17,770 bases of DNA, from UHGV virus genome UHGV-0302460. One strand, written 5' to 3'. The translations under genes were made by a program, and so were the position numbers. The notes below the pieces were generated by a model. That model saw only the letters and a program-made list of their open reading frames with translations, had not been told where the DNA came from and did no database searches. Below are positions 857-11,542 of the stretch, in pieces. Origin of the DNA: a virus. Position 1 is the stretch's first letter. Each line of letters opens with the position of its first letter.

Positions 857-1074
857 CAGAACCTCGCCAGCCGGTACCCGGGATGCCCCCGTCGTCGTGT
901 AATCAGAGCCGCAAGGCGGCGCTCCCACTCCTGCCGCCCCTGCCGGATCTCAGATAAGTTTTCCATGGTCATCTGCTGACCATTAAAGGTGACGGATTTT
1001 CCGTCCAGCACCGCCATTTCAGCTTCCGTATAACGCTGAATCATGGCTTCGATATCATTCTGGTTCATAACCAT
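856..1074 (-). CDS. gpW-like head-tail joining protein
   Basis: 72-aa ORF between large terminase and portal, the same position as lambda W. C-terminal RRRGHPGY resembles lambda W RRRGPAGF. Start overlaps the terminase stop. Confidence 0.55.
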   Translation of the reverse strand: MVMNQNDIEAMIQRYTEAEMAVLDGKSVTFNGQQMTMENLSEIRQGRQEWERRLAALITRRRGHPGYRLARF

Positions 1075-3167
1075 CCTCCGGAAGTCAGCCAGGGGTTAAC
1101 ATCGTCAGTTACTGTTTTCTTCCGTTTTTGTTTTTTAACAGGCGTGGATACCGGTTCCGGTGAGGATGACGGTTCGGTACTGTCCTGGACACACTCCAGC
1201 CAGGTTTCCCGGCTCGCCCACTCCGGTGCATCCGGCCAGCGGATCTTTTCGTATCCATGCAGAATGACCAGAGCCTCGGCATACACCATCAGGTCAAAAG
1301 CTTCGTTGGCACCGCGACCCGGCTTACTCCATTTCCCGTCACTGCTCCGCTCTTCATACGTCAGTTCGTCGTAAAACCAGCTCCCCAGCCAGTCAGGGAA
1401 ATGCACATAGCCGGGACCTGGCGAGTCACGCCATAACGCGTTATTCACCCGGTCTTTCAGTGCATCCGTCTGAAGAAGCCAGAGCGGCACATCACCTGCG
1501 GCCTGCGCCCGTCGGCCCGTTCGTCCGGTGTTATCAGGGAATGTACGGGTGATCAGTTTTGCGCGCCGGATGCTGTCGCCCTTAAACAGGTAAATACGTT
1601 TACCAAGGCCATCACGACGGCAACGACGCCAGAATTTATAGGCATTATCAGTGACCCCGTCTTCACCGCCGGAGTCCACCGCCATTGCCATCAGTCGCAT
1701 TTGTTGAGAAGGATCGGAGGCCAGCGGCCAGCTTTTATGAAAAACATCCGTCAGCAGGACATCCCAGTCTTCCGGATAGCTGGCCGGATCAATTCGCTGG
1801 CTCTCCCCGTCGCTGTCACCGCGCAATGACTGCGTGATGTTGTAACGATCAATAATCCAGCGTTCGCCACGGCTGCCATAGCCCGTTACCTGAACCACAA
1901 AACGGCGATGACGTCCCGCCTGCACATCCACTGTCGCCACAAGGAAATTAACGCCATCCGGCACACTGCGGGAAGGAACTGGCTCTGCCCGCTGCTCAAG
2001 CAGTTCACTTTTTCGTTGCTCCATGCTGGCGCGGGGAAGATAAGGTAATCCCCAGTCGGTATTGATAACCGTCTTGAGTGTTTCTTCACTTCCGGTTGTC
2101 TCGTATTCCTGTTCTGCAGTAAGCAGTTTGTAAACGAGTTGCGAGAGTGTCTGGTAAGCAGCTGCCGGACCCTCCATCCAGAATGACGCAATACGTGAGC
2201 GTCGGGGATCACCATAACGACTGCCATCCGCATTGATGGATTCACCATCCCGCAACCAGACCCCACGTCCGTTCAGCTCACGTTTTTGTTCAGGCATAAT
2301 CCGTCCTGAACAGGAAGGACACTGAATATAAGCCGCCTCACTTGCCAGCACGGGATCGGCAATATCACGGAAACCAGCAACCACATCGCCGCAGGGCTGA
2401 AAATACTCACCACAGTGTGGACAAGGCCAGTACCAGCGACGGCGATCGCCACGGTTATAGAGCGACAGTATCCCCGTGGTTGGTGGAGCCTCATGCGGTG
2501 AAGTCCGTCGCCATTTCACATCCTTCACATCCCTGCCGGGGGAACTCTCCACAAGCGTCATACCACTGGACATAAATGTTGTGGTACGTTTTGAGGCAAG
2601 AGAGAAAGCATCCCCCTCGCCATCAATATCTTCCGGAAAACGGTCATAATCCGTCAGCGCGACGCATTTATAATCTGATGAGGACATGATATTGACTGAC
2701 GGCCAGCCGATTTTCAGGTAGTTACCAGCAAGGAATGTTCTGTCATAAACGTTGTTGTCATTTTTGTTCGGACTCAGGCGACTGACCACTTCCGGGCTGA
2801 CGCGAAACGTTCTGGCGAGTCGTTTTTTGGAGTGTTCGCGGGCTTTTTCCTCCGTCATCTGTATGATCAGCATATCAGCAGGATCGCAAATCACGTTGTA
2901 AATCACCCAGCCGTCAATCAGGCCGATAGTCTTGCCGGTTCGTGCCGGGCCAACAAATATCACTGCGTCGTATTCACGCGAGGCCAGGCAGTTCATCGGC
3001 TCAATAACATACGGTGCCACCAGCGGATCCCACGGGACTGAGTTCCCTGCCCCCATGGGCACCCGCATATACTGAGCAACGGCATCAGCAACCCGCATTC
3101 GTCTCGGTGCGCGAAGGATATAACCTGAATCGGTTCGTGCTGCCTTTGCGGTTTCCTGATTCAGCAT
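1065..3167 (-). CDS. Terminase large subunit, lambda gpA-like
   Basis: 700-aa ORF with a Walker A-like GPARTGKT motif and a WPCPHCGEYFQ motif resembling lambda A ACPHCGEEQYL. Its ATG overlaps the stop of the upstream small terminase (TAATG). Confidence 0.85.
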   Translation of the reverse strand: MLNQETAKAARTDSGYILRAPRRMRVADAVAQYMRVPMGAGNSVPWDPLVAPYVIEPMNCLASREYDAVIFVGPARTGKTIGLIDGWVIYNVICDPADMLIIQMTEEKAREHSKKRLARTFRVSPEVVSRLSPNKNDNNVYDRTFLAGNYLKIGWPSVNIMSSSDYKCVALTDYDRFPEDIDGEGDAFSLASKRTTTFMSSGMTLVESSPGRDVKDVKWRRTSPHEAPPTTGILSLYNRGDRRRWYWPCPHCGEYFQPCGDVVAGFRDIADPVLASEAAYIQCPSCSGRIMPEQKRELNGRGVWLRDGESINADGSRYGDPRRSRIASFWMEGPAAAYQTLSQLVYKLLTAEQEYETTGSEETLKTVINTDWGLPYLPRASMEQRKSELLEQRAEPVPSRSVPDGVNFLVATVDVQAGRHRRFVVQVTGYGSRGERWIIDRYNITQSLRGDSDGESQRIDPASYPEDWDVLLTDVFHKSWPLASDPSQQMRLMAMAVDSGGEDGVTDNAYKFWRRCRRDGLGKRIYLFKGDSIRRAKLITRTFPDNTGRTGRRAQAAGDVPLWLLQTDALKDRVNNALWRDSPGPGYVHFPDWLGSWFYDELTYEERSSDGKWSKPGRGANEAFDLMVYAEALVILHGYEKIRWPDAPEWASRETWLECVQDSTEPSSSPEPVSTPVKKQKRKKTVTDDVNPWLTSGGWL

Positions 3168-3661
3168 TACTCCTCCCGCTGTAATTCCTCCTCATCATCC
3201 GCACCTGCTTCGGTCACCCGCAGGGCTATCTGATCGCGCAGATCATCAATAATGGACTGAACACGGCTCACAGCGGCAGGCTGCAGACCGCAGTCACGTT
3301 CAAGAATATCCGGTAATGTCTCCAGCACCTGCACGACCGCTTTTGCCCAGATGGCAAACTCCCGTCTGACATCACTGGCCGGAATGAGTTGTGCCGTTTC
3401 CTGTTCGAACTTAAGACGCTCACGTTCAGACTGATACCAGGCTTTGCGCTCATGCGCGTCCATTTCGCCTTCTGCAACCGGCGGTGGTAATGCCAGAAAT
3501 GCCGACACAATATCAACCACCCGATAAAGCTTGAGGTTGCTTTCATGCCCCCCTGCAACGGGTAGATTTTGCAGCCTTGCCGCAGCAGTCTGGCGATGTA
3601 CACCTGACAGTGCCGCCAGTTGACTGATATTCAGCGTCAGATTTTTTAACTCTCGATCCAT
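3167..3661 (-). CDS. Terminase small subunit, Nu1-like
   Basis: 164-aa ORF directly upstream of, and translationally coupled to, the large terminase. N-terminal HTH-like segment (LTLNISQLAALSGVHRQTAAARL) and acidic C-terminus. A cos-like site lies about 170 bp upstream. Confidence 0.65.
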   Translation of the reverse strand: MDRELKNLTLNISQLAALSGVHRQTAAARLQNLPVAGGHESNLKLYRVVDIVSAFLALPPPVAEGEMDAHERKAWYQSERERLKFEQETAQLIPASDVRREFAIWAKAVVQVLETLPDILERDCGLQPAAVSRVQSIIDDLRDQIALRVTEAGADDEEELQREE

Positions 3662-3824
3662 ACCCGCTCCAGAATGTTTTAAACATGCATCTTGCGAACA
3701 ACTTTAGGCAAACGGTGTTAGTGATGAACAAAAAACAATCAAAATCGACACCACAAAAATAAAACCACTGTAATATCAATACATTACAGCAGTGGTGATG
3801 ACGAATGAAATTTCAAAAACTAGC

Positions 3825-3880
3825 CTTTTTCCGCGACGCTCCCGCCCCGTGGCAGGCCACCCCACCGGAAGGACCCGCCA
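3825..3880 (-). other. Putative cos packaging site (cosQ/cosN-like)
   Basis: Minus strand reads GCGGGTCCTTCCGGTG...CCACG GGGCGGGAGCGT CGCGG. From memory, the lambda right end and cos read ACGGGTCCTTTCCGGTGATCCGACAGGTTACG GGGCGGCGACCT CGCGGG. The putative 12-nt core maps to 3836..3847 and matches the lambda cohesive end at 8 of 12 positions, with conserved flanks. Confidence 0.45.
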
Positions 3881-4114
3881 AAATGAGAGTGATTATCACC
3901 ATTGCTGATGAATAAATTGATGAAAATCATTGAAACGCCTTTCAGCAAGATAACGGCGACGGTCGTTGTTGAACTCCGTAGCTCTGCTACTAAGGTTAAA
4001 AGCATGGCCATCTTTTGCCACCGGCAAATCTTCAATGGATTTCCCCTGCCGGTTTTTTATTCCTCACATTATCGCAGCCCCTCAGTGAAGGGCTGCTGTA
4101 ATGCCTGCTCTTAC

Positions 4115-4477
4115 TCAGTAACGACCGCGCCTTCCGGTAATTTCATACCGGCAAATACCGGACAGCCCGGGGATCGTTATCTGCAGCTGGTTAGCCAGGG
4201 AGTTAATCTCAGCGACCAACACTGGCTTCGTATAGCGCCATGCCGCCAGCCCTTGTCCACAGAAGCTCGCCATATCTTTTTTCTGATCAAACTCATGACA
4301 CTTCATATTGAGCTGCGCACTTAAGCTGTTGCGATGCTGAAGTTCTCCGGTGAAGTAGTCATCCAGGACTTTATAGGCTGCATATTTAAATCCGGGGTTT
4401 AGCCATGCTGCATAATCATAAGCAACAAACTTCCCGCCATATGTTCCACCGTGTACACCGCGCTCAGTAAAAACCAC
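4115..4477 (-). CDS. Hypothetical protein; N-terminus resembles the C-terminal half of a KilA-N domain, possibly a 5'-truncated remnant
   Basis: 120-aa ORF with a GTG start 21 nt after the minus-strand Rz stop. GGTYGGKFVAYDYAAWLNPGF resembles the KilA-N C-terminal motif GTWvHp.lA...A.WLsPeF, but the N-terminal half of the domain is absent. Confidence 0.35.
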   Translation of the reverse strand: MVFTERGVHGGTYGGKFVAYDYAAWLNPGFKYAAYKVLDDYFTGELQHRNSLSAQLNMKCHEFDQKKDMASFCGQGLAAWRYTKPVLVAEINSLANQLQITIPGLSGICRYEITGRRGRY

Positions 4478-4498
4478 AGATTCGTGTTTTTTCTCCAG

Positions 4499-4645
4499 CT
4501 ACTTAATGCGCTGGGTGCGGATATATTCCTGCGCCCCTTCCAGTTGCTTCTGCATCGTCATCAACCGTTCTCTGAGGGTGAAATAATCCCGTTCAGCGGT
4601 GTCTGCCAGTCGGGGGCTGGTTGCATTATCCATGCTGGTGGGTCC
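4499..4645 (-). pseudogene. Rz (i-spanin) C-terminal fragment on minus strand
   Basis: Minus-strand translation ...[50 protein letters not shown] with stop at 4501..4499 matches the lambda Rz C-terminus pattern. Its upstream continuation is broken at 4645/4646. Confidence 0.6.
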
Positions 4646-4913
4646 CGCTGACATGCAGCAGCGTCAGCGTGATGTTGCTGCGATCGATGCAAAATACACG
4701 AAGGAGTTAGCCGATGCGAAAACTGAAAATGAAACTCTGCGCGCTGATGTTGCCGCTGGTCGTAAGCGCCTGCGGGTCAATGCCAGTTGCTCCGCAGCCG
4801 TGCGTGAAGCCACCGGACCCACCAGCATGGATAATGCAACCAGCCCCCGACTGGCAGACACCGCTGAACGGGATTATTTCACCCTCAGAGAACGGTTGAT
4901 GACGATGCAGAAG
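4646..4913 (+). pseudogene. Internal Rz fragment in inverted (plus) orientation
   Basis: Plus-strand translation [88 protein letters not shown] is a contiguous mid-to-C-terminal Rz segment. It lacks the N-terminal TM anchor and the native C-terminus. Confidence 0.6.
4714..4899 (+). CDS. Rz1-like o-spanin lipoprotein, copy 1, nested in the inverted Rz fragment
   Basis: 61 aa: [61 protein letters not shown]. Signal peptide with lipobox-like VVSAC and a proline-rich body, typical of lambda Rz1, in the +1 frame inside Rz. Confidence 0.6.
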
Positions 4914-5222
4914 GCGCTTACGACCAGCGGCAACATCAGCGCGCAGAGTTTCATTTTCAGTTTTCGCATCGGCTAACTCCTTCGTGTATTTTGCATCGAT
5001 CGCAGCAACATCACGCTGACGCTGCTGCATGTCAGCGATGGTGGCGGTCGCCTGCTTCAGCTCACTGACTTTTTTATCACGCTGTTCTTTGTAGGCGATG
5101 GCGTTATCACGGTAATGATTGACCGCCCACGACAGGCAGACGATGATGCAGATAACCAAAGCATAAATAATCGCGGCGACTCTGAGTGAGCTGAAGCAGT
5201 CGATCGCCACCATCGCTGACAT
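4912..5222 (-). pseudogene. Rz (i-spanin) N-terminal fragment on minus strand, with TM anchor
   Basis: Minus-strand translation ...[93 protein letters not shown] matches the lambda Rz N-terminus [21 protein letters not shown].... The expected native start near 5184 is replaced by a junction; the only ATG is a fortuitous one at 5222. The fragment ends at the 4911/4912 junction. Confidence 0.6.
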
Positions 5223-5526
5223 GCAGCAGCGTCAGCGTGATGTTGCTGCACTCGATGCAAAGTACTCGAGAGAATTAGCCAATGCGAAAGCTGAAAATGA
5301 AACTCTGCGCGCTGATGTTGCCGCTGGTCGTCGTCGGTTGCACATCAAAGCAGTCTGTCAGTCAGTGCGTGAAGCCACCACCGCCTCCGGCGTGGATAAT
5401 GCAGCCTCCCCCCGACTGGCAGACACCGCTGAACGGGATTATTTCACCCTCCGGGAACGACTGGTAATGATGCAGGCCCAACTTGAAGGTGCTCAGCAAT
5501 ACATAACCGAGCAGTGTTTAAAGTAA
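5185..5526 (+). pseudogene. Rz (i-spanin) copy 2, N-terminally truncated, lacking the TM anchor
   Basis: Translation (L)[113 protein letters not shown] is very close to lambda Rz from about residue 45 to the end. There is an in-frame stop at 5164..5166 and the first ATG is at 5221. This resembles the rzpR pseudogene situation in the K-12 Rac prophage. Confidence 0.7.
5282..5467 (+). CDS. Rz1-like o-spanin lipoprotein, copy 2
   Basis: 61 aa: [61 protein letters not shown], nearly identical to lambda Rz1 as I remember it. Lipobox VVGC; nested in the +1 frame of Rz copy 2. Confidence 0.8.
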
Positions 5527-5663
5527 AATCTTAACTACAATATGATTCATTTTGATGATTGTTTCATAAGGAACAGTGAAGTAAGATCTAAGAGGAGTTA
5601 AATTTTATACAGTATAATCATAATATTGCAGCAAGGTGGTTATAATTGAAAGAATATTTAGAT

Positions 5664-7121
5664 ATGAATACATCTCATGTAAGAGTTGTTACTCATATGT
5701 GTGGGTTCCTGGTTTGGCTCTATAGTCTTTCAATGTTGCCACCAATGGTTGTAGCATTGTTTTATAAAGAAAAAAGCCTGTTCGTTTTCTTTATAACTTT
5801 CGTTATATTTTTTTGCATTGGTGGCGGAGCGTGGTATACAACTAAGAAATCTGGCATTCAATTACGTACCCGTGATGGGTTTATTATAATTGTAATGTTT
5901 TGGATTTTGTTTTCTGTTATTAGTGCATTCCCTTTATGGATTGACTCAGAACTTAATTTAACGTTCATTGATGCTCTGTTTGAAGGGGTTTCTGGAATAA
6001 CAACAACAGGAGCAACTGTAATTGATGATGTTAGTTCATTACCTCGGGCATATTTGTACTATCGGTCACAGTTAAATTTTATAGGTGGTTTAGGAGTTAT
6101 TGTTCTGGCGGTTGCTGTATTGCCATTATTGGGTATTGGTGGTGCAAAGCTTTATCAGTCAGAAATGCCGGGGCCATTTAAGGATGACAAACTCACTCCC
6201 CGCCTGGCCGATACGTCACGGACACTGTGGATAACTTATTCTTTATTAGGTATTGCTTGTATTGTCTGTTATAGACTTGCAGGAATGCCTTTGTTTGATG
6301 CTATTTGTCACGGGATTTCCACAGTTTCGCTTGGTGGTTTCTCAACTCATAGCGAGAGTATCGGATATTTTAATAACTATTTGGTTGAGCTGGTGGCTGG
6401 TTCTTTTTCCCTGCTATCGGCTTTCAACTTCACTCTTTGGTATATTGTTATTAGCAGGAAAACGATAAAACCTTTAATCAGAGATATTGAACTTCGTTTC
6501 TTTCTGTTAATAGCCTTAGGGGTGATCATTGTTACCTCTTTCCAGGTCTGGCATATAGGTATGTATGACTTGCATGGAAGTTTTATTCATTCGTTTTTTC
6601 TTGCCAGCTCCATGCTCACTGATAATGGTTTAGCTACGCAGGATTATGCAAGTTGGCCCACGCACACGATAGTGTTTTTGCTGTTGTCAAGTTTCTTTGG
6701 GGGATGTATAGGTTCAACTTGTGGTGGAATTAAGTCACTTCGATTTCTTATACTTTTCAAACAAAGCAAACACGAGATAAATCAGCTTTCTCATCCCAGA
6801 GCGTTGTTGAGTGTAAATGTAGGAGGGAAGATAGTTACAGATCGTGTAATGAGGTCTGTATGGAGTTTCTTTTTTCTTTATACTCTCTTCACGGTGTTTT
6901 TTATACTGGTGTTAAATGGTATGGGATATGATTTTCTTACATCATTTGCAACAGTGGCTGCATGTATTAATAATATGGGATTAGGTTTTGGGGCTACTGC
7001 ATCGTCATTCGGAGTGCTTAATGACATTGCAAAATGTTTAATGTGCATAGCTATGATTCTTGGTCGCCTTGAAATTTATCCTGTTATTATATTGTTTTCA
7101 GGTTTTTTTTGGCGCTCCTAA
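5664..7121 (+). CDS. trkG: TrkH/TrkG-family potassium uptake membrane protein
   Basis: Reading from the ATG at 5664 gives 485 aa starting MNTSHVRVVTHMCGFLVWLYSLSM..., which I recognise as E. coli TrkG (a Rac prophage gene). It is a multi-pass membrane protein with GIGG-type selectivity-filter-like motifs (LLGIGG, GFGATA). The coding region is strongly AT-rich compared with its flanks. The ORF-track start at 5646 is a TTG upstream extension. Confidence 0.88.
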   Translation: MNTSHVRVVTHMCGFLVWLYSLSMLPPMVVALFYKEKSLFVFFITFVIFFCIGGGAWYTTKKSGIQLRTRDGFIIIVMFWILFSVISAFPLWIDSELNLTFIDALFEGVSGITTTGATVIDDVSSLPRAYLYYRSQLNFIGGLGVIVLAVAVLPLLGIGGAKLYQSEMPGPFKDDKLTPRLADTSRTLWITYSLLGIACIVCYRLAGMPLFDAICHGISTVSLGGFSTHSESIGYFNNYLVELVAGSFSLLSAFNFTLWYIVISRKTIKPLIRDIELRFFLLIALGVIIVTSFQVWHIGMYDLHGSFIHSFFLASSMLTDNGLATQDYASWPTHTIVFLLLSSFFGGCIGSTCGGIKSLRFLILFKQSKHEINQLSHPRALLSVNVGGKIVTDRVMRSVWSFFFLYTLFTVFFILVLNGMGYDFLTSFATVAACINNMGLGFGATASSFGVLNDIAKCLMCIAMILGRLEIYPVIILFSGFFWRS

Positions 7122-7258: not shown

Positions 7259-8050
7259 ATGAGCGAGAAATTAAAGATAGTCTATCGCCCATTACAAGAA
7301 TTGTCACCGTATGCGCACAACGCCAGGACGCACAGTACTGAGCAGGTGGCACAACTGGTAGAAAGTATTAAGCAATTCGGCTGGACTAATCCGGTGCTGA
7401 TTGACGAAAAGGGCGAAATTATTGCGGGTCACGGTCGTGTTATGGCGGCTGAAATGCTCAAAATGGATTCTGTTCCGGTCATTGTTCTGTCTGGCCTGAC
7501 GGATGAGCAGAAAAAGGCGTACCGCCTGGCAGATAATCGCCTGCCGATGAATGCTGGCTGGGATGAAGATCTGTTGCGGATGGAGCTGTCGGACCTAATC
7601 AATGCTGATTTTGATGTCTCCCTGACAGGCTTCATCCCGACAGAAATTGATGAACTGTTGACGGATGTTTTGCCCGGTACAGGAAATGAGGAGGAGCCGT
7701 ATACGACGAAAATTGATACGCCTGTTTATGAGCCGTCGGGCGGTAAACCGGATATCAGTGAACTGTACGACGATACGAAAACTCAGGAGCTGATCAGCCG
7801 GATACGTTCGGCGTCCCTTGAGCCTGATATTGAGAAATTCCTCCTGTGTGCGGCAGAACGTCACACGGTGTTTAATTTCAGCAGAATTGCGGACTATTAC
7901 GCTCACGCCCCCTCTGAAATTCAGTGTTTTTTCGAGGAGTCGGCGCTGGTGATCATTGATTATCAGCAGGCTATTGAAAATGGATTTGTCCGGATGACGC
8001 AGCGCATGGTGGAGATCATGCATGGTGGTGAGGAGGAGGAATATGCGTGA
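7259..8050 (+). CDS. ParB-like nuclease domain protein
   Basis: The 263-aa N-terminus IVYRPLQELSPYAHNARTHSTEQVAQLVESIKQFGWTNPVLIDEKGEIIAGHGRVMAA fits the ParB/Srx N-terminal domain pattern (GxGR motif). The position after trkG matches the ynaK region of Rac. Confidence 0.7.
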   Translation: MSEKLKIVYRPLQELSPYAHNARTHSTEQVAQLVESIKQFGWTNPVLIDEKGEIIAGHGRVMAAEMLKMDSVPVIVLSGLTDEQKKAYRLADNRLPMNAGWDEDLLRMELSDLINADFDVSLTGFIPTEIDELLTDVLPGTGNEEEPYTTKIDTPVYEPSGGKPDISELYDDTKTQELISRIRSASLEPDIEKFLLCAAERHTVFNFSRIADYYAHAPSEIQCFFEESALVIIDYQQAIENGFVRMTQRMVEIMHGGEEEEYA

Positions 8051-8975
8051 TGATTTTTGCGCCTTTATTCTGACTCACGGGCGACCGGACAAAGTTCTGA
8101 CTTACCGGACGTTGCGTCGTGCTGGCTATACCGGGAAAATTTTTATCGTTGTTGATGATGAAGATAAGACACGGAATCAGTACATGGCTGAATTTGGTGA
8201 ACAGGTGCTGGTGTTTTCCAAAGCCGATATCGCCAGTCGTTTTGACGAAGCCGATAATTTCTGTGACCGCCGCTCAATTTTTTACGCCCGTAATGCCTGT
8301 TTCGACCTGGCAAAACTGGTCGGGTGTAAATACTTCATTCAGCTCGATGATGATTATCACGAGTTCCAGTTTCGGGTGGATCGCAACTATGACCAGGCCT
8401 ATTTTCCGATAAGGAAACTGGATGCGATCCTTTCTGAAATGCTGGCGTACTACGAATCAATACCTGCTCTTTCCATCGCTATGTCGCAGGGCGGGGATTT
8501 TCTTGGTGACAATGGCGGCCATGCTTCGTGGGTGAAACGCAAGGCAATGAACAGCTTTATCTGTTCGGTTGATCGACCGTTCTCATTCATGGGGCGCATT
8601 AACGAGGATGTGAATACGTACACGAATCTCGGTCGCTGTGGTGAATTGTTTATGACGATCGGTGCTGTCCAGTTAGGGCAGAAACAGACGCAGAAAAACA
8701 GCGGCGGAATGACCGAGCTGTATCTGGATTCCGCAACCTACGTTAAAAGTTTTTACTCCGTCATGTATGCGCCGTCGTGCGTAAAAATCTCACTGATGGG
8801 TGCCAGCCATAAACGCATTCACCATCAGGTCACCTGGAACAACGCTGCAGTAAAAATCCTTCACGAAAAATACAGGAAGAAGACACCCTGCATATCAATG
8901 GGGGTGACAAATGATTCCGTATTCGAAAGTCGAGTCTCTGGCAGCGTGCCGGATGACTGCACAACAAATCGCTGA
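8043..8975 (+). CDS. Hypothetical protein with possible GT-A glycosyltransferase-like features; function unknown
   Basis: ATG at 8043 follows a strong SD (GAGGAGGAGGA, 8029..8039) and overlaps the ParB-like stop, so it is preferred over the ORF-track start at 8022. N-terminal FILTHGRPDKVL...KIFIVVDDED and a later QLDDDY motif resemble a GT-A Rossmann-like fold with a DxD motif; this is a weak, motif-level call. Confidence 0.5.
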   Translation: MRDDFCAFILTHGRPDKVLTYRTLRRAGYTGKIFIVVDDEDKTRNQYMAEFGEQVLVFSKADIASRFDEADNFCDRRSIFYARNACFDLAKLVGCKYFIQLDDDYHEFQFRVDRNYDQAYFPIRKLDAILSEMLAYYESIPALSIAMSQGGDFLGDNGGHASWVKRKAMNSFICSVDRPFSFMGRINEDVNTYTNLGRCGELFMTIGAVQLGQKQTQKNSGGMTELYLDSATYVKSFYSVMYAPSCVKISLMGASHKRIHHQVTWNNAAVKILHEKYRKKTPCISMGVTNDSVFESRVSGSVPDDCTTNR

Positions 8976-9162
8976 CGTTCTGGATGTTGATCTGAACCGA
9001 CTGAAAGAAAATCGGGAAGCAATGACAGATTTTTATGCGGCCATCCGTAAGGGCAGAGCGAAAGGTGAAGCCGAGTTACGAGCGGCATTGTTTAAGCTTG
9101 CCAGAAAAGGGGATGCCTTTGCTCTGCGCGAACTACTCAGGGTGGATAAAAATCAGGACTAA
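8911..9162 (+). CDS. Small HTH-like protein, possibly terminase-associated
   Basis: 83-aa ORF immediately upstream of the small terminase. The helix-turn-helix-like segment MTAQQIADVLDVDLNRL is followed by a basic helical region. Start is uncertain (8911 or 8953); it overlaps the upstream gene by 65 nt if 8911 is used. Confidence 0.45.
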   Translation: MIPYSKVESLAACRMTAQQIADVLDVDLNRLKENREAMTDFYAAIRKGRAKGEAELRAALFKLARKGDAFALRELLRVDKNQD

Positions 9163-9165
9163 CTG

Positions 9166-10260
9166 ATGAGCAGACCGGACTGGGGGGCGTTGCAGCAGGA
9201 GTATATTGCTGAATACACCCGCTCCGGTATATCTCCGGTGGCATGGTGTGAAGCAAGGGGACTGAATTACGCAACAGCCCGTCGTTACATCAAAAAAACT
9301 CCGAAAAATGCGCAGACAGAAATGTGCAAAACTGCGCAAAAAAGTGCGCAGAAAAAATCTGCGCAGACTGCACAAAAGCGGAACGAAAAATCTCAGGAAA
9401 AAAAGCCAGTATTCGATGCGGGCCTGAATGAGGGCGACGCGGAGGAATTTTCGTTCTGTCCCGATGAATTCGGCATTTCTGACCAGCAGGCTAAGTTTGC
9501 GATGCTTGTTGCTCAGGGTAAAAAGCCGACAGAGGCGTACCGACTAGCCGGTTATGAGGGGCAAGGTGCGACAGCTAACAGCAACGCCAGTCGTATGCTT
9601 AGAAATGCCAGGGTTTTTCGCGCTATCAGCTACTTCCGCAATCAGTACCAGAAACGCTATACCGCAGACCTGGATTTACTAGTGAGTCAGTTGATGGCTA
9701 TTGTCCTGGCCGACCCCAATCAGCTTGCACAATTTCGCCGTGTTAACTGCCGTTATTGCTGGGGCGAGAATCATCTCTACCAGTGGCGCGATATAGCAGA
9801 ATTCGACAAGGCAGCGGCGCAGGCTTCCAGAGATGGCAAACCCGAACCGGAATATGGAGGCCTCGGCTTTGTTGATAACGCCATACCCAATCCGGACTGC
9901 CCGAAGTGCTGCGGTGAGGGAACGGGACAGCTTTATATGGCTGATACCACTCTGCTTGATGGGGATGCGCGGCAATTATATGCAGGGGCAAAATTCGGAA
10001 AATTCGGCGTTGAGATCCTGCTGGAGGATAAGGCTGCCGCCCGGCGTGAATTGTTGCGTTTGTTTTCTGCTGGCGGGGCTTTATGTGCAGATAAACGGCT
10101 ACAGGAACTGGAAATTGAACGGCGCAGAATGGAAAACCAGAAGCTGCGCAAAGAGATCGAAACGGTGGAAGATAATGAACATCCCCAGCCTGTGGCGATC
10201 AATATTAATGTGGTTGATGCCAGAGTAAGGAGTGATGAAGATGATCTCTCCGACGCTTAA
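9166..10260 (+). CDS. Terminase small subunit (P27-like family), long form with Cys4 motif
   Basis: Central segment ISDQQAKFAMLVAQGKKPTEAYRLAGYEG...NASRMLRNARV matches the terminase small-subunit signature. It sits directly upstream of the large terminase. It also has a low-complexity K/A/Q-rich stretch, a CRYCWG...CPKCCGEG zinc-ribbon-like motif and a C-terminal coiled-coil-like segment. Confidence 0.7.
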   Translation: MSRPDWGALQQEYIAEYTRSGISPVAWCEARGLNYATARRYIKKTPKNAQTEMCKTAQKSAQKKSAQTAQKRNEKSQEKKPVFDAGLNEGDAEEFSFCPDEFGISDQQAKFAMLVAQGKKPTEAYRLAGYEGQGATANSNASRMLRNARVFRAISYFRNQYQKRYTADLDLLVSQLMAIVLADPNQLAQFRRVNCRYCWGENHLYQWRDIAEFDKAAAQASRDGKPEPEYGGLGFVDNAIPNPDCPKCCGEGTGQLYMADTTLLDGDARQLYAGAKFGKFGVEILLEDKAAARRELLRLFSAGGALCADKRLQELEIERRRMENQKLRKEIETVEDNEHPQPVAININVVDARVRSDEDDLSDA

Positions 10261-11542
10261 TGTGCCTCAGGCGCGATTTCTTTCAATGCCCCATAAATTT
10301 AAAGCCTATATTGCTGGTTTTGGCTCGGGCAAAACATGGGTTGGGTGTGGCGGCATATGCAAGGGGATTTGGGAGCATCCAGGTATAAATCAGGGATATT
10401 TTGCGCCAACGTATCCCCAAATTCGCGATATTTTTTACCCTACAGTGGAAGAAGTTGCTGCTGACTGGGGATTGAACGTAAAAATTAATGAGGGAAATAA
10501 AGAGGTTCACTTTTATTACGGACGCCAGTATCGGGGAACCACTATCTGCAGATCGATGGAGAAGCCACAAACGATCGTCGGTTTCAAAATTGGTAATGCG
10601 TTGGTGGATGAACTGGACATTTTGCCGAAGGAAAAAGCCAGAACGGCGTGGCGCAAGATAATTGCACGTATGCGTTATAAGATTGATGGACTTCGCAACG
10701 GTATTGACGTTACAACCACGCCGGAAGGATTCAAATTTGTCTACGAGCAGTTTGTTAAAGCCGTGCGTGAAAAAACAGAGCTGGCCTCACTGTATGGTCT
10801 GGTGCAGGCATCTACTTTCGATAATGAAAAGAACCTGCCAGCAGATTACATTCCTTCGCTTCTTGAATCATACCCTCCAGAGCTGATTAAAGCCTATCTT
10901 CGAGGACAGTTTACTAACCTGACAAGTGGTACTGTTTACCATCAGTTTGACCGGAAACTGAATAATTGCGAAGAAGTGGAGCAGCCAGGGGAGCCGATTT
11001 ATATTGGGATGGATTTTAACGTTGGAAAGATGGCGGGAATCGTCCATGTGCTGCGTTTGGGGCTTCCATGTGCGGTAACTGAAATCATCAATGCCTACGA
11101 TACGCCGGATATGATCCGCATCATTAAAGAACGCTTCTGGCTGTATGATGGGAATGATTACCGGAAAGTGAGGGAAATTTATATTTATCCAGATGCTTCC
11201 GGGGATTCCAGAAAATCAAGTAACGCAAGTACGACGGATATAGCCCAGCTTAAGCAGGCTGGTTTTAACGTTGTGGTGAACAGCTCGAACCCGCCAGTAA
11301 AAGATCGCGTTAACTCAATGAATGCAATGTTCTGCAATGCCAATGGTGAGCGTCGCTATAAAGTTAATGTGAAGCGTTGCCCGTTATATGCCGAATCTCT
11401 GGAGCAACAGGTCTGGGATGAGAAGGGGGAGCCTGATAAAAAATCTGGCAATGATCACCCGAATGATGCCGGAGGTTATTTCATCGTTAAGCAATTCCCT
11501 ATTGTCAAACCGACCGGAAGAGTCACATCACTTCGGATTTAA
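10241..11542 (+). CDS. Terminase large subunit
   Basis: Walker A-like AGFGSGKTW near the N-terminus, nuclease-type acidic residues in the C-terminal half, and a position between small terminase and portal. The ATG at 10241 is preferred because of the AAGGAG at 10227..10232; alternative starts are the GTG at 10232 and the ATG at 10235. Confidence 0.85.
   Translation: MISPTLNVPQARFLSMPHKFKAYIAGFGSGKTWVGCGGICKGIWEHPGINQGYFAPTYPQIRDIFYPTVEEVAADWGLNVKINEGNKEVHFYYGRQYRGTTICRSMEKPQTIVGFKIGNALVDELDILPKEKARTAWRKIIARMRYKIDGLRNGIDVTTTPEGFKFVYEQFVKAVREKTELASLYGLVQASTFDNEKNLPADYIPSLLESYPPELIKAYLRGQFTNLTSGTVYHQFDRKLNNCEEVEQPGEPIYIGMDFNVGKMAGIVHVLRLGLPCAVTEIINAYDTPDMIRIIKERFWLYDGNDYRKVREIYIYPDASGDSRKSSNASTTDIAQLKQAGFNVVVNSSNPPVKDRVNSMNAMFCNANGERRYKVNVKRCPLYAESLEQQVWDEKGEPDKKSGNDHPNDAGGYFIVKQFPIVKPTGRVTSLRI

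Follow-up and report, generated by a model that had tools for sequence, protein, structure and literature searches.

A DNA hexamer array beneath the low-complexity linker of a modular small terminase: a candidate pac site beside its putative reader in a Rac-like prophage of Escherichia coli

How a small terminase (TerS) chooses viral DNA is not settled, and a 2022 review describes the way in which the TerS ring recognizes DNA as unclear and controversial (PMC9611059). The question takes a concrete form in terS of the virus genome UHGV-0302460, a gene whose product carries, shortly after its N-terminal domain, a tract rich in lysine, alanine, and glutamine (K/A/Q). The gene lies in a stretch of 17,770 nucleotides that was analyzed as a whole and is called the window here (Table 1). 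An initial annotation of this DNA had treated the tract as a low-complexity feature of the protein, marked by a short imperfect periodicity in the DNA and perhaps hypervariable or prone to slippage. What, then, maintains so odd a peptide in a packaging protein? As judged from the sequence, the K/A/Q-rich peptide is the protein reading of a conserved array of DNA hexamers. By analogy with phage P1, this array is probably a TerS recognition (pac) array of the P1 style, built on a different hexamer and set in a modular TerS, and the helix-turn-helix (HTH) domain encoded just before it, HTH1, would be its reader.

The periodicity noticed earlier is genuine, as Tandem Repeats Finder reports a period of 12 (9328-9355, 2.3 copies, 87% matches) and a period of 36 (9304-9377, 2.1 copies) in the tract. 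Four exact and two one-mismatch copies of TGCGCA fall within 66 bp, at +143 to +208 of terS, with spacings of 14, 10, 12, 15, and 9 bp and with runs of A separating the sites. By comparison, the entire 17.8-kb window has nine exact TGCGCA, four of them inside 57 bp of the array. The sites of the window are read in the frame xxT-GCG-CAR, giving X-Ala-Gln repeats in which the codon ahead of alanine varies from site to site (AAT, ACT, AGT, TCT) while ending in T every time. When the tract peptide was back-translated 200,000 times with the codon usage of the prophage itself, at least four exact TGCGCA arose with P = 2e-4 and at least six TGYRCA with P = 5.5e-5. Chance clustering of the hexamers is rejected by these values together with the count over the window.

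Comparison among relatives indicates that the conserved unit is the hexamer, kept in three codon phases and read as varied peptides, so that the earlier framing of the tract as a low-complexity feature of the protein does not hold. The allele of the window is in fact a slightly degenerate one. It carries R54C where most alleles from E. coli read TEMRK (ATG CGC AAA, which holds the exact hexamer in phase 2), and TGCACA where most of them have TGCGCA. The TerS gene of a Klebsiella phage, with about 40% amino acid identity, has six exact TGCGCA in 64 nucleotides at the same place, read as Thr-Ala-Gln (TAQ), Leu-Arg-Thr (LRT), and Lys-Cys-Ala (KCA) and thus in all three phases. Across 80 distinct alleles, 415 sites divide among the phases as 329, 75, and 11. 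The peptide readings follow lineage: AQ in some, LR, VR, or MR in others, CA in others again, and, for a variant hexamer TGCGAA, CE or AN. Because the hexamer is kept in three phases, across different amino acid readings, and once in DNA that codes for nothing, it is under selection at the level of DNA; packaging is the role proposed for it here.

Diversity within the gene agrees with this picture. Among 40 alleles of the E. coli clade, third codon positions show a diversity of 0.039 for HTH1 and 0.044 for the array; elsewhere in terS the values are 0.14-0.30, and HTH1 plus array is the least diverse segment of the gene. The tract, whose length is mostly constant, can therefore not be called hypervariable. 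The layout of the hexamers differs elsewhere, with clusters of 6+3 in a clade of Klebsiella, Raoultella, and Citrobacter and of 4+8 in Vibrio salinus. The twelve TGCGCA of the Vibrio salinus locus (L128, 1631-1960), in groups of 4 and 8 over about 330 nucleotides, form the largest array seen, and the terS gene there looks frameshifted.

A second line of evidence comes from the company that the array keeps. HTH1 resembles the N terminus of P1 PacA (hhalign probability 91.7%, E 7.8e-7; BLASTP 34% identity, E 0.002) and matches both phrog_1711, the PacA family (E 3.8e-5), and phrog_370 (E 2e-16). AlphaFold2 models it at a predicted local distance difference test (pLDDT) of about 75-83; Pfam and NCBIfam have no family for it, the only matches being sub-threshold ones to transposase-type HTH domains. 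The domain is shared with TerS proteins whose remainder is unrelated (phrog_370: RothC, phiARM81mr, 933W), and every one of them has a hexamer array directly after HTH1. All seven TGCGCA of the 5.1-kb locus of Aeromonas phiARM81mr are inside the array. In a scan with each species represented by one genome, HTH1 with an array occurs in nine species of Aeromonas, three of Vibrio, and in Pantoea, Raoultella, Citrobacter, Serratia, Psychromonas, and others, typically with 5-9 of the 5-10 hexamers per 3.1 kb at +105 to +400 of terS. The reverse search, which started from three close TGCGCA, gave a similar result, as 79 of the first 120 IMG/VR stretches adjoin a TerS that bears HTH1. As far as these sequences go, the array is linked to HTH1 and not to the TerS core. 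One IMG/VR locus (L254) separates the array from the gene: six TGCGCA lie in 57 nucleotides of non-coding DNA (9745-9801), 1.9 kb upstream of a TerS that has an Arg-type HTH1 and a linker with no array. The array can therefore exist apart from coding sequence.

Variation in the putative recognition helix of HTH1 is matched by variation in the hexamer. Alleles with the helix A-R-R-[Y/H] include 80 distinct ones with at least three TGCGCA, none with TGCGAA, and four with neither, whereas the helix A-K-R-[Y/H] is accompanied by at least three TGCGAA in 14 alleles, by TGCGCA in none, and by neither in one. In the K-type alleles TGCGAA often occurs as TGCGAAT or paired as TGCGAATTCGCA. Helices of the R- and K-types are each found on both types of core. 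The K-type HTH of Gallibacterium is 65% identical to the R-type of the window compared with 51-53% to the enteric K-types, and the switch to the K-type has therefore arisen at least twice. This pattern points to a direct reading of base 5 of the hexamer by residue 39, with Arg39 paired with TGCGCA and Lys39 with TGCGAA.

The system that most resembles this arrangement is that of P1. In published descriptions its pac comprises seven hexamers bearing Dam sites (PMC10028697, PMC11260489), and synonymous recoding of those hexamers impairs packaging, with a fall in titer of about 9-fold (PMC10028697). The annotation of the P1 genome places the pac cleavage points inside pacA, between four and three TGATCA/G hexamers, with TGATCA at +194, +201, +213, and +228 and TGATCG/TGATCA at +324, +336, and +347, the whole spanning +194 to +352. 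PacA (phrog_1711) and the TerS of the window have homologous N-terminal HTH domains, and in both genes repeated palindromic hexamers, 7-15 bp apart, follow closely on the codons of the HTH, still within the 5' third of the gene, and are read as an odd repetitive peptide (MIIDHSNDQHAGDH in P1). The differences are also considerable. P1 uses TGATCA/G, arranges its hexamers as 4+3 around a central cut with a site for IHF, and has its own PacA core and PacB, whereas the window has TGCGCA in one cluster of six, an unrelated core (Terminase_2 with a four-cysteine, or Cys4, module), and a large terminase (TerL) of the Terminase_6 type. No obvious hexamer array was seen in the stretch examined of D6 PacA, from a relative of P1.

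Two further phages have a hexamer array or a pac site within the TerS gene. The TerS of the Shiga toxin (Stx) phage 933W (phrog_370) has an HTH1 (about 40% identity), and a hexamer array, read as IDHEIDHKTDHEIDHD, comes immediately after it. This array consists of four (C/T)GATCA right after HTH1 (L010, 1630-1690); it differs from that of the window in being P1-like, with a strict 12-bp period and Dam sites, and it is joined to an unrelated core with no Cys4 module. The searched literature holds no description of a pac array in 933W. Phage P22, a headful packager, has pac inside gene 3, which encodes its TerS, gp3 (PMC9611059, PMC11260489). The P22 site is a single asymmetric one of 22 bp rather than a hexamer array, and fold and family of its TerS differ.

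Read together, these comparisons suggest how the locus might work. HTH1 domains placed around the TerS ring would bind the hexamer array on concatemeric phage DNA, the sites being roughly one helical turn apart in the linker-coding DNA, and residue 39 of the recognition helix would read base 5 of each hexamer. Binding would mark a pac site inside terS at which TerL makes the first cut, and headful packaging would begin there as it does in P1. A headful (pac-type) mode is suggested by the assignment of TerL to the Pfam Terminase_6 (T4-like) families. The C-terminal helix and acidic tail of TerS would dock the large terminase. Since reader and site stand side by side in one stretch of about 230 bp, they would move together whenever terS recombines. 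As far as the searched literature shows, the reading of this locus as a pac array, with a possible one-residue code, is new.

Several observations weigh against such a role. Nothing in the searched literature links TGCGCA to packaging or to terminase, and, as TGCGCA has no GATC, the Dam control of P1 cannot apply. The window has a single cluster, with no second one of the kind seen in the 6+3 layout of Klebsiella and no identified cleavage or IHF region, although no search for IHF sites was made. The actual reader of pac could be HTH2, the other DNA-binding domain of TerS, and the L254 array, lying directly before the first of the lysis genes, would fit a role in transcription as well. The covariation rests on about two independent switches, and linkage could explain part of it, with reader and site only about 100 nucleotides apart; moreover, four R-type alleles and one K-type allele have no array in +105 to +260 of terS. 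Finally, the low synonymous diversity extends to HTH1 and may stem from recent mosaic transfer instead of constraint on the site.

Some of these points can be assembled into the most serious alternative, in which the array is a genuine cis element with a function other than pac, bound by a regulator of late genes or by a nucleoid protein of the host, or acting through HTH2 or TerL rather than HTH1. The intergenic position of the L254 array would suit such an element, as would the palindromic form of TGCGCA, of the kind bound by dimeric regulators, the single cluster of the window, and the type of HTH2, which is that of SF6, a domain implicated in DNA binding in SF6 and SPP1. An element that acts independently of HTH1 is harder to reconcile with the presence of the array after HTH1 on cores that lack HTH2 (the phrog_370-type TerS of RothC, phiARM81mr, and the nine Aeromonas species) or with the covariation of the HTH1 helix with base 5 through at least two independent switches. 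In addition, the homologous PacA system of P1 is a proven pac site of the same layout. A function other than pac thus seems unlikely, although it merits real consideration, and we continue to favor a P1-style pac array. A broader proposal can be advanced more tentatively, and is perhaps better regarded as a possibility than as an expectation: HTH1 and array would together form a portable “reader plus address” cassette of about 230 bp, distributed among unrelated TerS cores (phrog_51, phrog_370, phrog_1711), with one residue setting its specificity.

Table 1. Features of terS and the adjoining gene, in positions of the window.
Feature	Position	Strand	Description
terS	9166..10260	+	ATG start, 364 amino acids (aa), no in-frame stop; small terminase (TerS)
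HTH1	9166..9297	+	aa 1-44; P1 PacA-like N-terminal HTH; putative recognition helix NYATARRYIKK with Arg39
Stop-free stretch	9263..9425	+	162 nucleotides; longest run of the window in which all forward frames lack stop triplets
K/A/Q-rich tract	9304..9405		aa 47-80; KNAQTEMCKTAQKSAQKKSAQTAQKRNEKSQEKK
Hexamer array	9309..9374		TGCGCA at 9309, 9333, 9345, 9360; TGTGCA at 9323; TGCACA at 9369
HTH2 and long helix	9460..9708	+	HTH2 aa 99-146, SF6/SPP1 G1P-type DNA-binding domain; helix aa 148-181
Cys4 module	9727..9939	+	aa 188-258
β-Hairpin and C-terminal helices	9979..10167	+	core model: β-hairpin aa 272-286, helix aa 289-302, long C-terminal helix aa 310-334
C-terminal tail	10183..10257	+	aa 340-364; PVAININVVDARVRSDEDDLSDA
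terL	10232..11542	+	Terminase_6N + Terminase_6C; overlaps end of terS; RefSeq start at 10241

Beyond the linker, TerS is built on a core of a different kind. A full-length AlphaFold2 model based on a two-clade alignment was poor (pLDDT 54, and below 50 in the cysteine region) and was replaced by a monomer model of the core alone, aa 95-335, from 58 sequences of several clades, with a pLDDT of 87.3. HTH2 is followed in this model by a helix (aa 148-181) that is probably the oligomerization helix, and a G1P-type HTH fold with an oligomerization helix after it is the arrangement expected of Terminase_2. Like G1P of SF6 and SPP1 (Terminase_2, PDB 2cmp/4zc3), TerS has an above-cut-off Pfam match, a long helix after the HTH, probable pac-type packaging (judged from the type of TerL), and a probable recognition sequence in or near terS. 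It differs in the extra N-terminal HTH and linker, about 95 residues, and in an inserted Cys4 β module of about 90 residues, with aa 122-321 fitting only 110 positions of the profile. The TerS proteins of F116, Bcep22, and Itty13 share the core from about aa 100 to 300 with its four cysteines invariant, and that of Itty13 is the best structural match in BFVD (E 1e-19). These three, however, have neither HTH1 nor the hexamer-bearing linker, are about 250-270 residues long, and end in other C-terminal tails. The C-terminal coiled-coil-like segment of the initial annotation corresponds to the long helix predicted with confidence at aa 310-334.

The four cysteines of this core, already pointed out in the initial annotation as a zinc-ribbon-like motif, prove to be strongly conserved. 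They lie in the motifs CRYCWG (aa 195-200) and CPKCCGEG (aa 245-252), 46 residues separating C198 from C245, and the module runs in the order strand 188-193, C195-x2-C198 knuckle, helix 210-222, C245-x2-C248 knuckle, strand 253-258. The two strands adjoin the knuckles in the model (pLDDT 87), the helix belongs to the 46-residue insert between them, and blocks of the module exceed a pLDDT of 90. All of the 141 representatives (50% identity) have C195 and C198, and 134 of them have C245 and C248, while C249 is not conserved; all four are also invariant in the TerS of F116 and Bcep22 and across six diverse phage TerS. Far from being peculiar to this protein, the motif characterizes a large subfamily of TerS, which comprises 1639 representative clusters at E <= 0.001 with a median length of 259 residues. 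No solved structure matches the cysteine-bearing part, and a sequence search of the PDB returned only a weak HTH match, to Pam5 TerS (E 0.23).

Two CxxC knuckles flanking β-strands, together with a conserved CPxC-G-x-G, form a pattern that we take to be typical of structural zinc ribbons. Residues 188-302 would then be a β-rich module clamped by the four cysteines, probably around a structural zinc ion. The searched literature holds nothing on a small terminase with a zinc ribbon or zinc finger in this system, and the 2022 review mentions zinc fingers for herpesvirus TerS only (PMC9611059). Those proteins (pUL28/pUL56), recognition subunits with cysteine-based zinc sites, offer an analogy only, as no relationship of sequence or fold to the TerS of the window was detected. 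The fact that one of their zinc fingers is implicated in DNA binding (PMC9611059), along with the lack of a matching solved structure, leaves some room for the cysteines to serve otherwise, as disulfides, as an Fe-S site, or as a DNA-contacting zinc finger that reads pac. We consider this rather improbable. Besides the ribbon-like appearance of the knuckles, the module occurs with and without HTH1 and in many pac contexts and is thus unlikely to set specificity, and a cytoplasmic location disfavors disulfides.

The C terminus varies in yet another way, as the tail, the last 25 or so residues, follows the type of TerL and not the type of TerS core. The window and a Klebsiella phage (L002) have TerL proteins that are 85% identical and share the tail, with TerS only about 40% identical. 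Likewise, a Yersinia phage (L001) and RothC (L005) have 87% identical TerL proteins and share another tail, with TerS cores that are unrelated. Given this covariation of tail and TerL, TerS genes are mosaics of at least three exchangeable parts, and the architecture of TerS is modular. The tail is probably a TerL-docking peptide.

The initial annotation suggested another explanation of the tract, namely that it is a flexible, basic, low-complexity protein linker, slippage-prone or hypervariable, whose DNA repeat is a by-product of duplication. Support for this comes from the prediction of disorder in the linker (pLDDT 31-44), from runs of A6-A8, from the openness of all three forward frames, and from rare in-frame variants. 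In 9263-9425 the homopolymers include A7 at 9292-9298 and 9398-9404 and A6 at 9338-9343 and 9352-9357. Comparison of homologues nevertheless shows a tract of equal length in most alleles, with no pattern of a contingency locus; in-frame losses of units are rare and amount to 2-9 residues (P0009, P0056, P0062, P0067, and loci L054 and L060). Twelve homologues leave the frame in the tract and later regain it (P0007, P0010, P0016, P0021, P0023, P0028, P0029, P0031, P0035, P0036, P0040, P0042), and all twelve come from Logan/ENA assemblies. In P0036, the only one checked at the DNA level, a common allele has acquired an additional A in three A-runs, and its two contigs have an extra A in other A6 runs as well, breaking the portal gene.

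Programmed or tolerated slippage in the frame-shifted homologues is accordingly rejected, given their Logan/ENA origin and the recurrence of the P0036 errors elsewhere on its contigs. As for the suggestion that the tract is slippage-prone, the rare losses of repeat units in frame bear it out to a slight extent at most, while the frameshift variants are homopolymer sequencing errors. The artefacts read as full-length proteins because all forward frames of the tract are free of stop triplets. Two Logan contigs (L140, ERR13669498, and L141, ERR13669351) have a systematic extra A in A6-A8 runs; the miscalls yield a 365-residue “variant” TerS and split portal genes, which are sequencing artefacts in the database. 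A homopolymer-rich, stop-free tract can thus hide sequencing frameshifts in proteins that look intact.

The remainder of the evidence runs counter to a linker shaped at the protein level. It is the hexamer and not the peptide that is conserved (AQ, LR/VR/MR, CA, CE, or AN by lineage), the array is found once in non-coding DNA, the choice of codons favors the hexamer (P = 2e-4, as above), and diversity in the tract is among the lowest in the gene. With its frameshift variants confined to Logan/ENA assemblies and those of P0036 reduced to +1 A errors, this explanation appears quite improbable, and an array maintained as DNA is preferred.

None of this bears on the standing of terS as a gene, which is real, single, and common, as indicated by identical copies in finished genomes, by its prevalence, and by the size of its cluster; as a protein it is ordinary and annotated already. 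Its product was correctly called a small terminase, as it matches Pfam Terminase_2 (PF03592) with 34.5 bits against a gathering cut-off of 26.1 (E 3.7e-8, aa 122-321), and an alignment to phrog_51, “terminase small subunit”, spans both ends (TerS 1-364 to 1-261 of 261, E 1.7e-75). RefSeq labels it terminase small subunit (WP_000089447.1), and terL starts inside the last 29 nucleotides of terS, so that the large-terminase gene adjoins its 3' end. The length of 364 residues is unusual, as had been said, against the subfamily median and a Terminase_2 profile of 141 positions, and all the sequence features listed in the initial annotation are present. The gene occurs in 896 of 5426 complete E. coli genomes, with copies that are 100% identical in many finished chromosomes, and its fused architecture is found in a 90%-identity protein cluster of 1423 members and in hundreds of clusters altogether. 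That the open reading frame is an artefact joining a small HTH gene to a TerS gene for some 260 residues by frameshift or sequencing error can be dismissed with near certainty: although most TerS of the Cys4 subfamily are about 259 residues long and lack the first 95 or so, and although an error in so homopolymer-rich and stop-free a tract would pass unseen, the same frame recurs in many independently finished genomes and throughout the 1423-member cluster, phrog_51 covers the whole protein, and the fusion is found with a different linker in Klebsiella, Enterobacter, Yersinia, Pantoea, Morganella, and Serratia as well.

The genes that follow terS encode the Terminase_6N/6C large terminase, a DUF4055 portal, a Mu-F-like protein, and a P22-type coat protein. 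With trkG, a ParB_N/ynaK gene, and Rz surrounding this packaging block, and with the same block annotated by RefSeq in strain ECCHD184, the neighborhood is that of a Rac-like lambdoid prophage; on such evidence of sequence and gene order, the element that carries terS is a Rac-like E. coli prophage with a P22-type coat. Just 5' of terS, an 83-residue open reading frame at 8911-9162 overlaps the end of a glycosyltransferase gene and aligns with the central part of phrog_309, “terminase small subunit” (E 8e-23), and with no Pfam or NCBIfam family; RefSeq calls a 70-residue hypothetical protein at this site. The glycosyltransferase gene, within 7259-8975 and directly upstream of the packaging genes, encodes a TET-associated glycosyltransferase homologue (PF20691, E 8e-35; phrog_842). 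It overlaps the end of the ParB_N/ynaK gene, ynaK being a pseudogene in strain ECCHD184, and the two may be a DNA-modification pair.

Farther from terS, the window joins two phage segments, the minus-strand part facing away from the plus-strand Rac-like block. The minus strand carries a lambda-type large terminase gene, gpA (1065-3167), and a Nu1-like DUF1441 gene (3167-3661). Rz-like open reading frames lie on either strand (4707-5222 minus, 5221-5526 plus), and around them are odd inverted repeats, among them some with 100%-complementary arms of 126 nucleotides (4646-4771 and 4912-5037) and 99 nucleotides (4547-4645 and 4815-4913). None of the 5426 complete E. coli genomes contains positions 4300-5700 in one piece. 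At this junction (1065-5530), either the assembly is chimeric or a rare inversion has taken place between prophages.

The choice of viral DNA by small terminases, with which we began, meets in this gene family an unusually legible case, with a short site in multiple copies, a small and separate HTH adjoining it, and natural swaps of domains between cores. Natural variants of specificity are at hand in the R/TGCGCA and K/TGCGAA types and in the GATC type of Stx phages and P1, and a large subfamily of TerS, still lacking a solved structure, is defined by the Cys4 module. The setting is a common one: the prophage occurs in about one-sixth of E. coli genomes, and its relatives include Stx-converting phages and prophages of Klebsiella and Enterobacter. 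For annotation, the lesson is that a “low-complexity” peptide in a phage gene can be the reflection of a cis-acting DNA element beneath it. With a pac signal that can be read, it would be easier to predict where generalized or lateral transduction starts and to design packageable phagemids. If the portable cassette proves true, packaging specificity would be written in a readable code, so that pac sites could be predicted from sequence in many enterobacterial, Vibrio, and Aeromonas prophages, specificity could be re-programmed, and the recognition of DNA by the TerS ring would have a tractable system.

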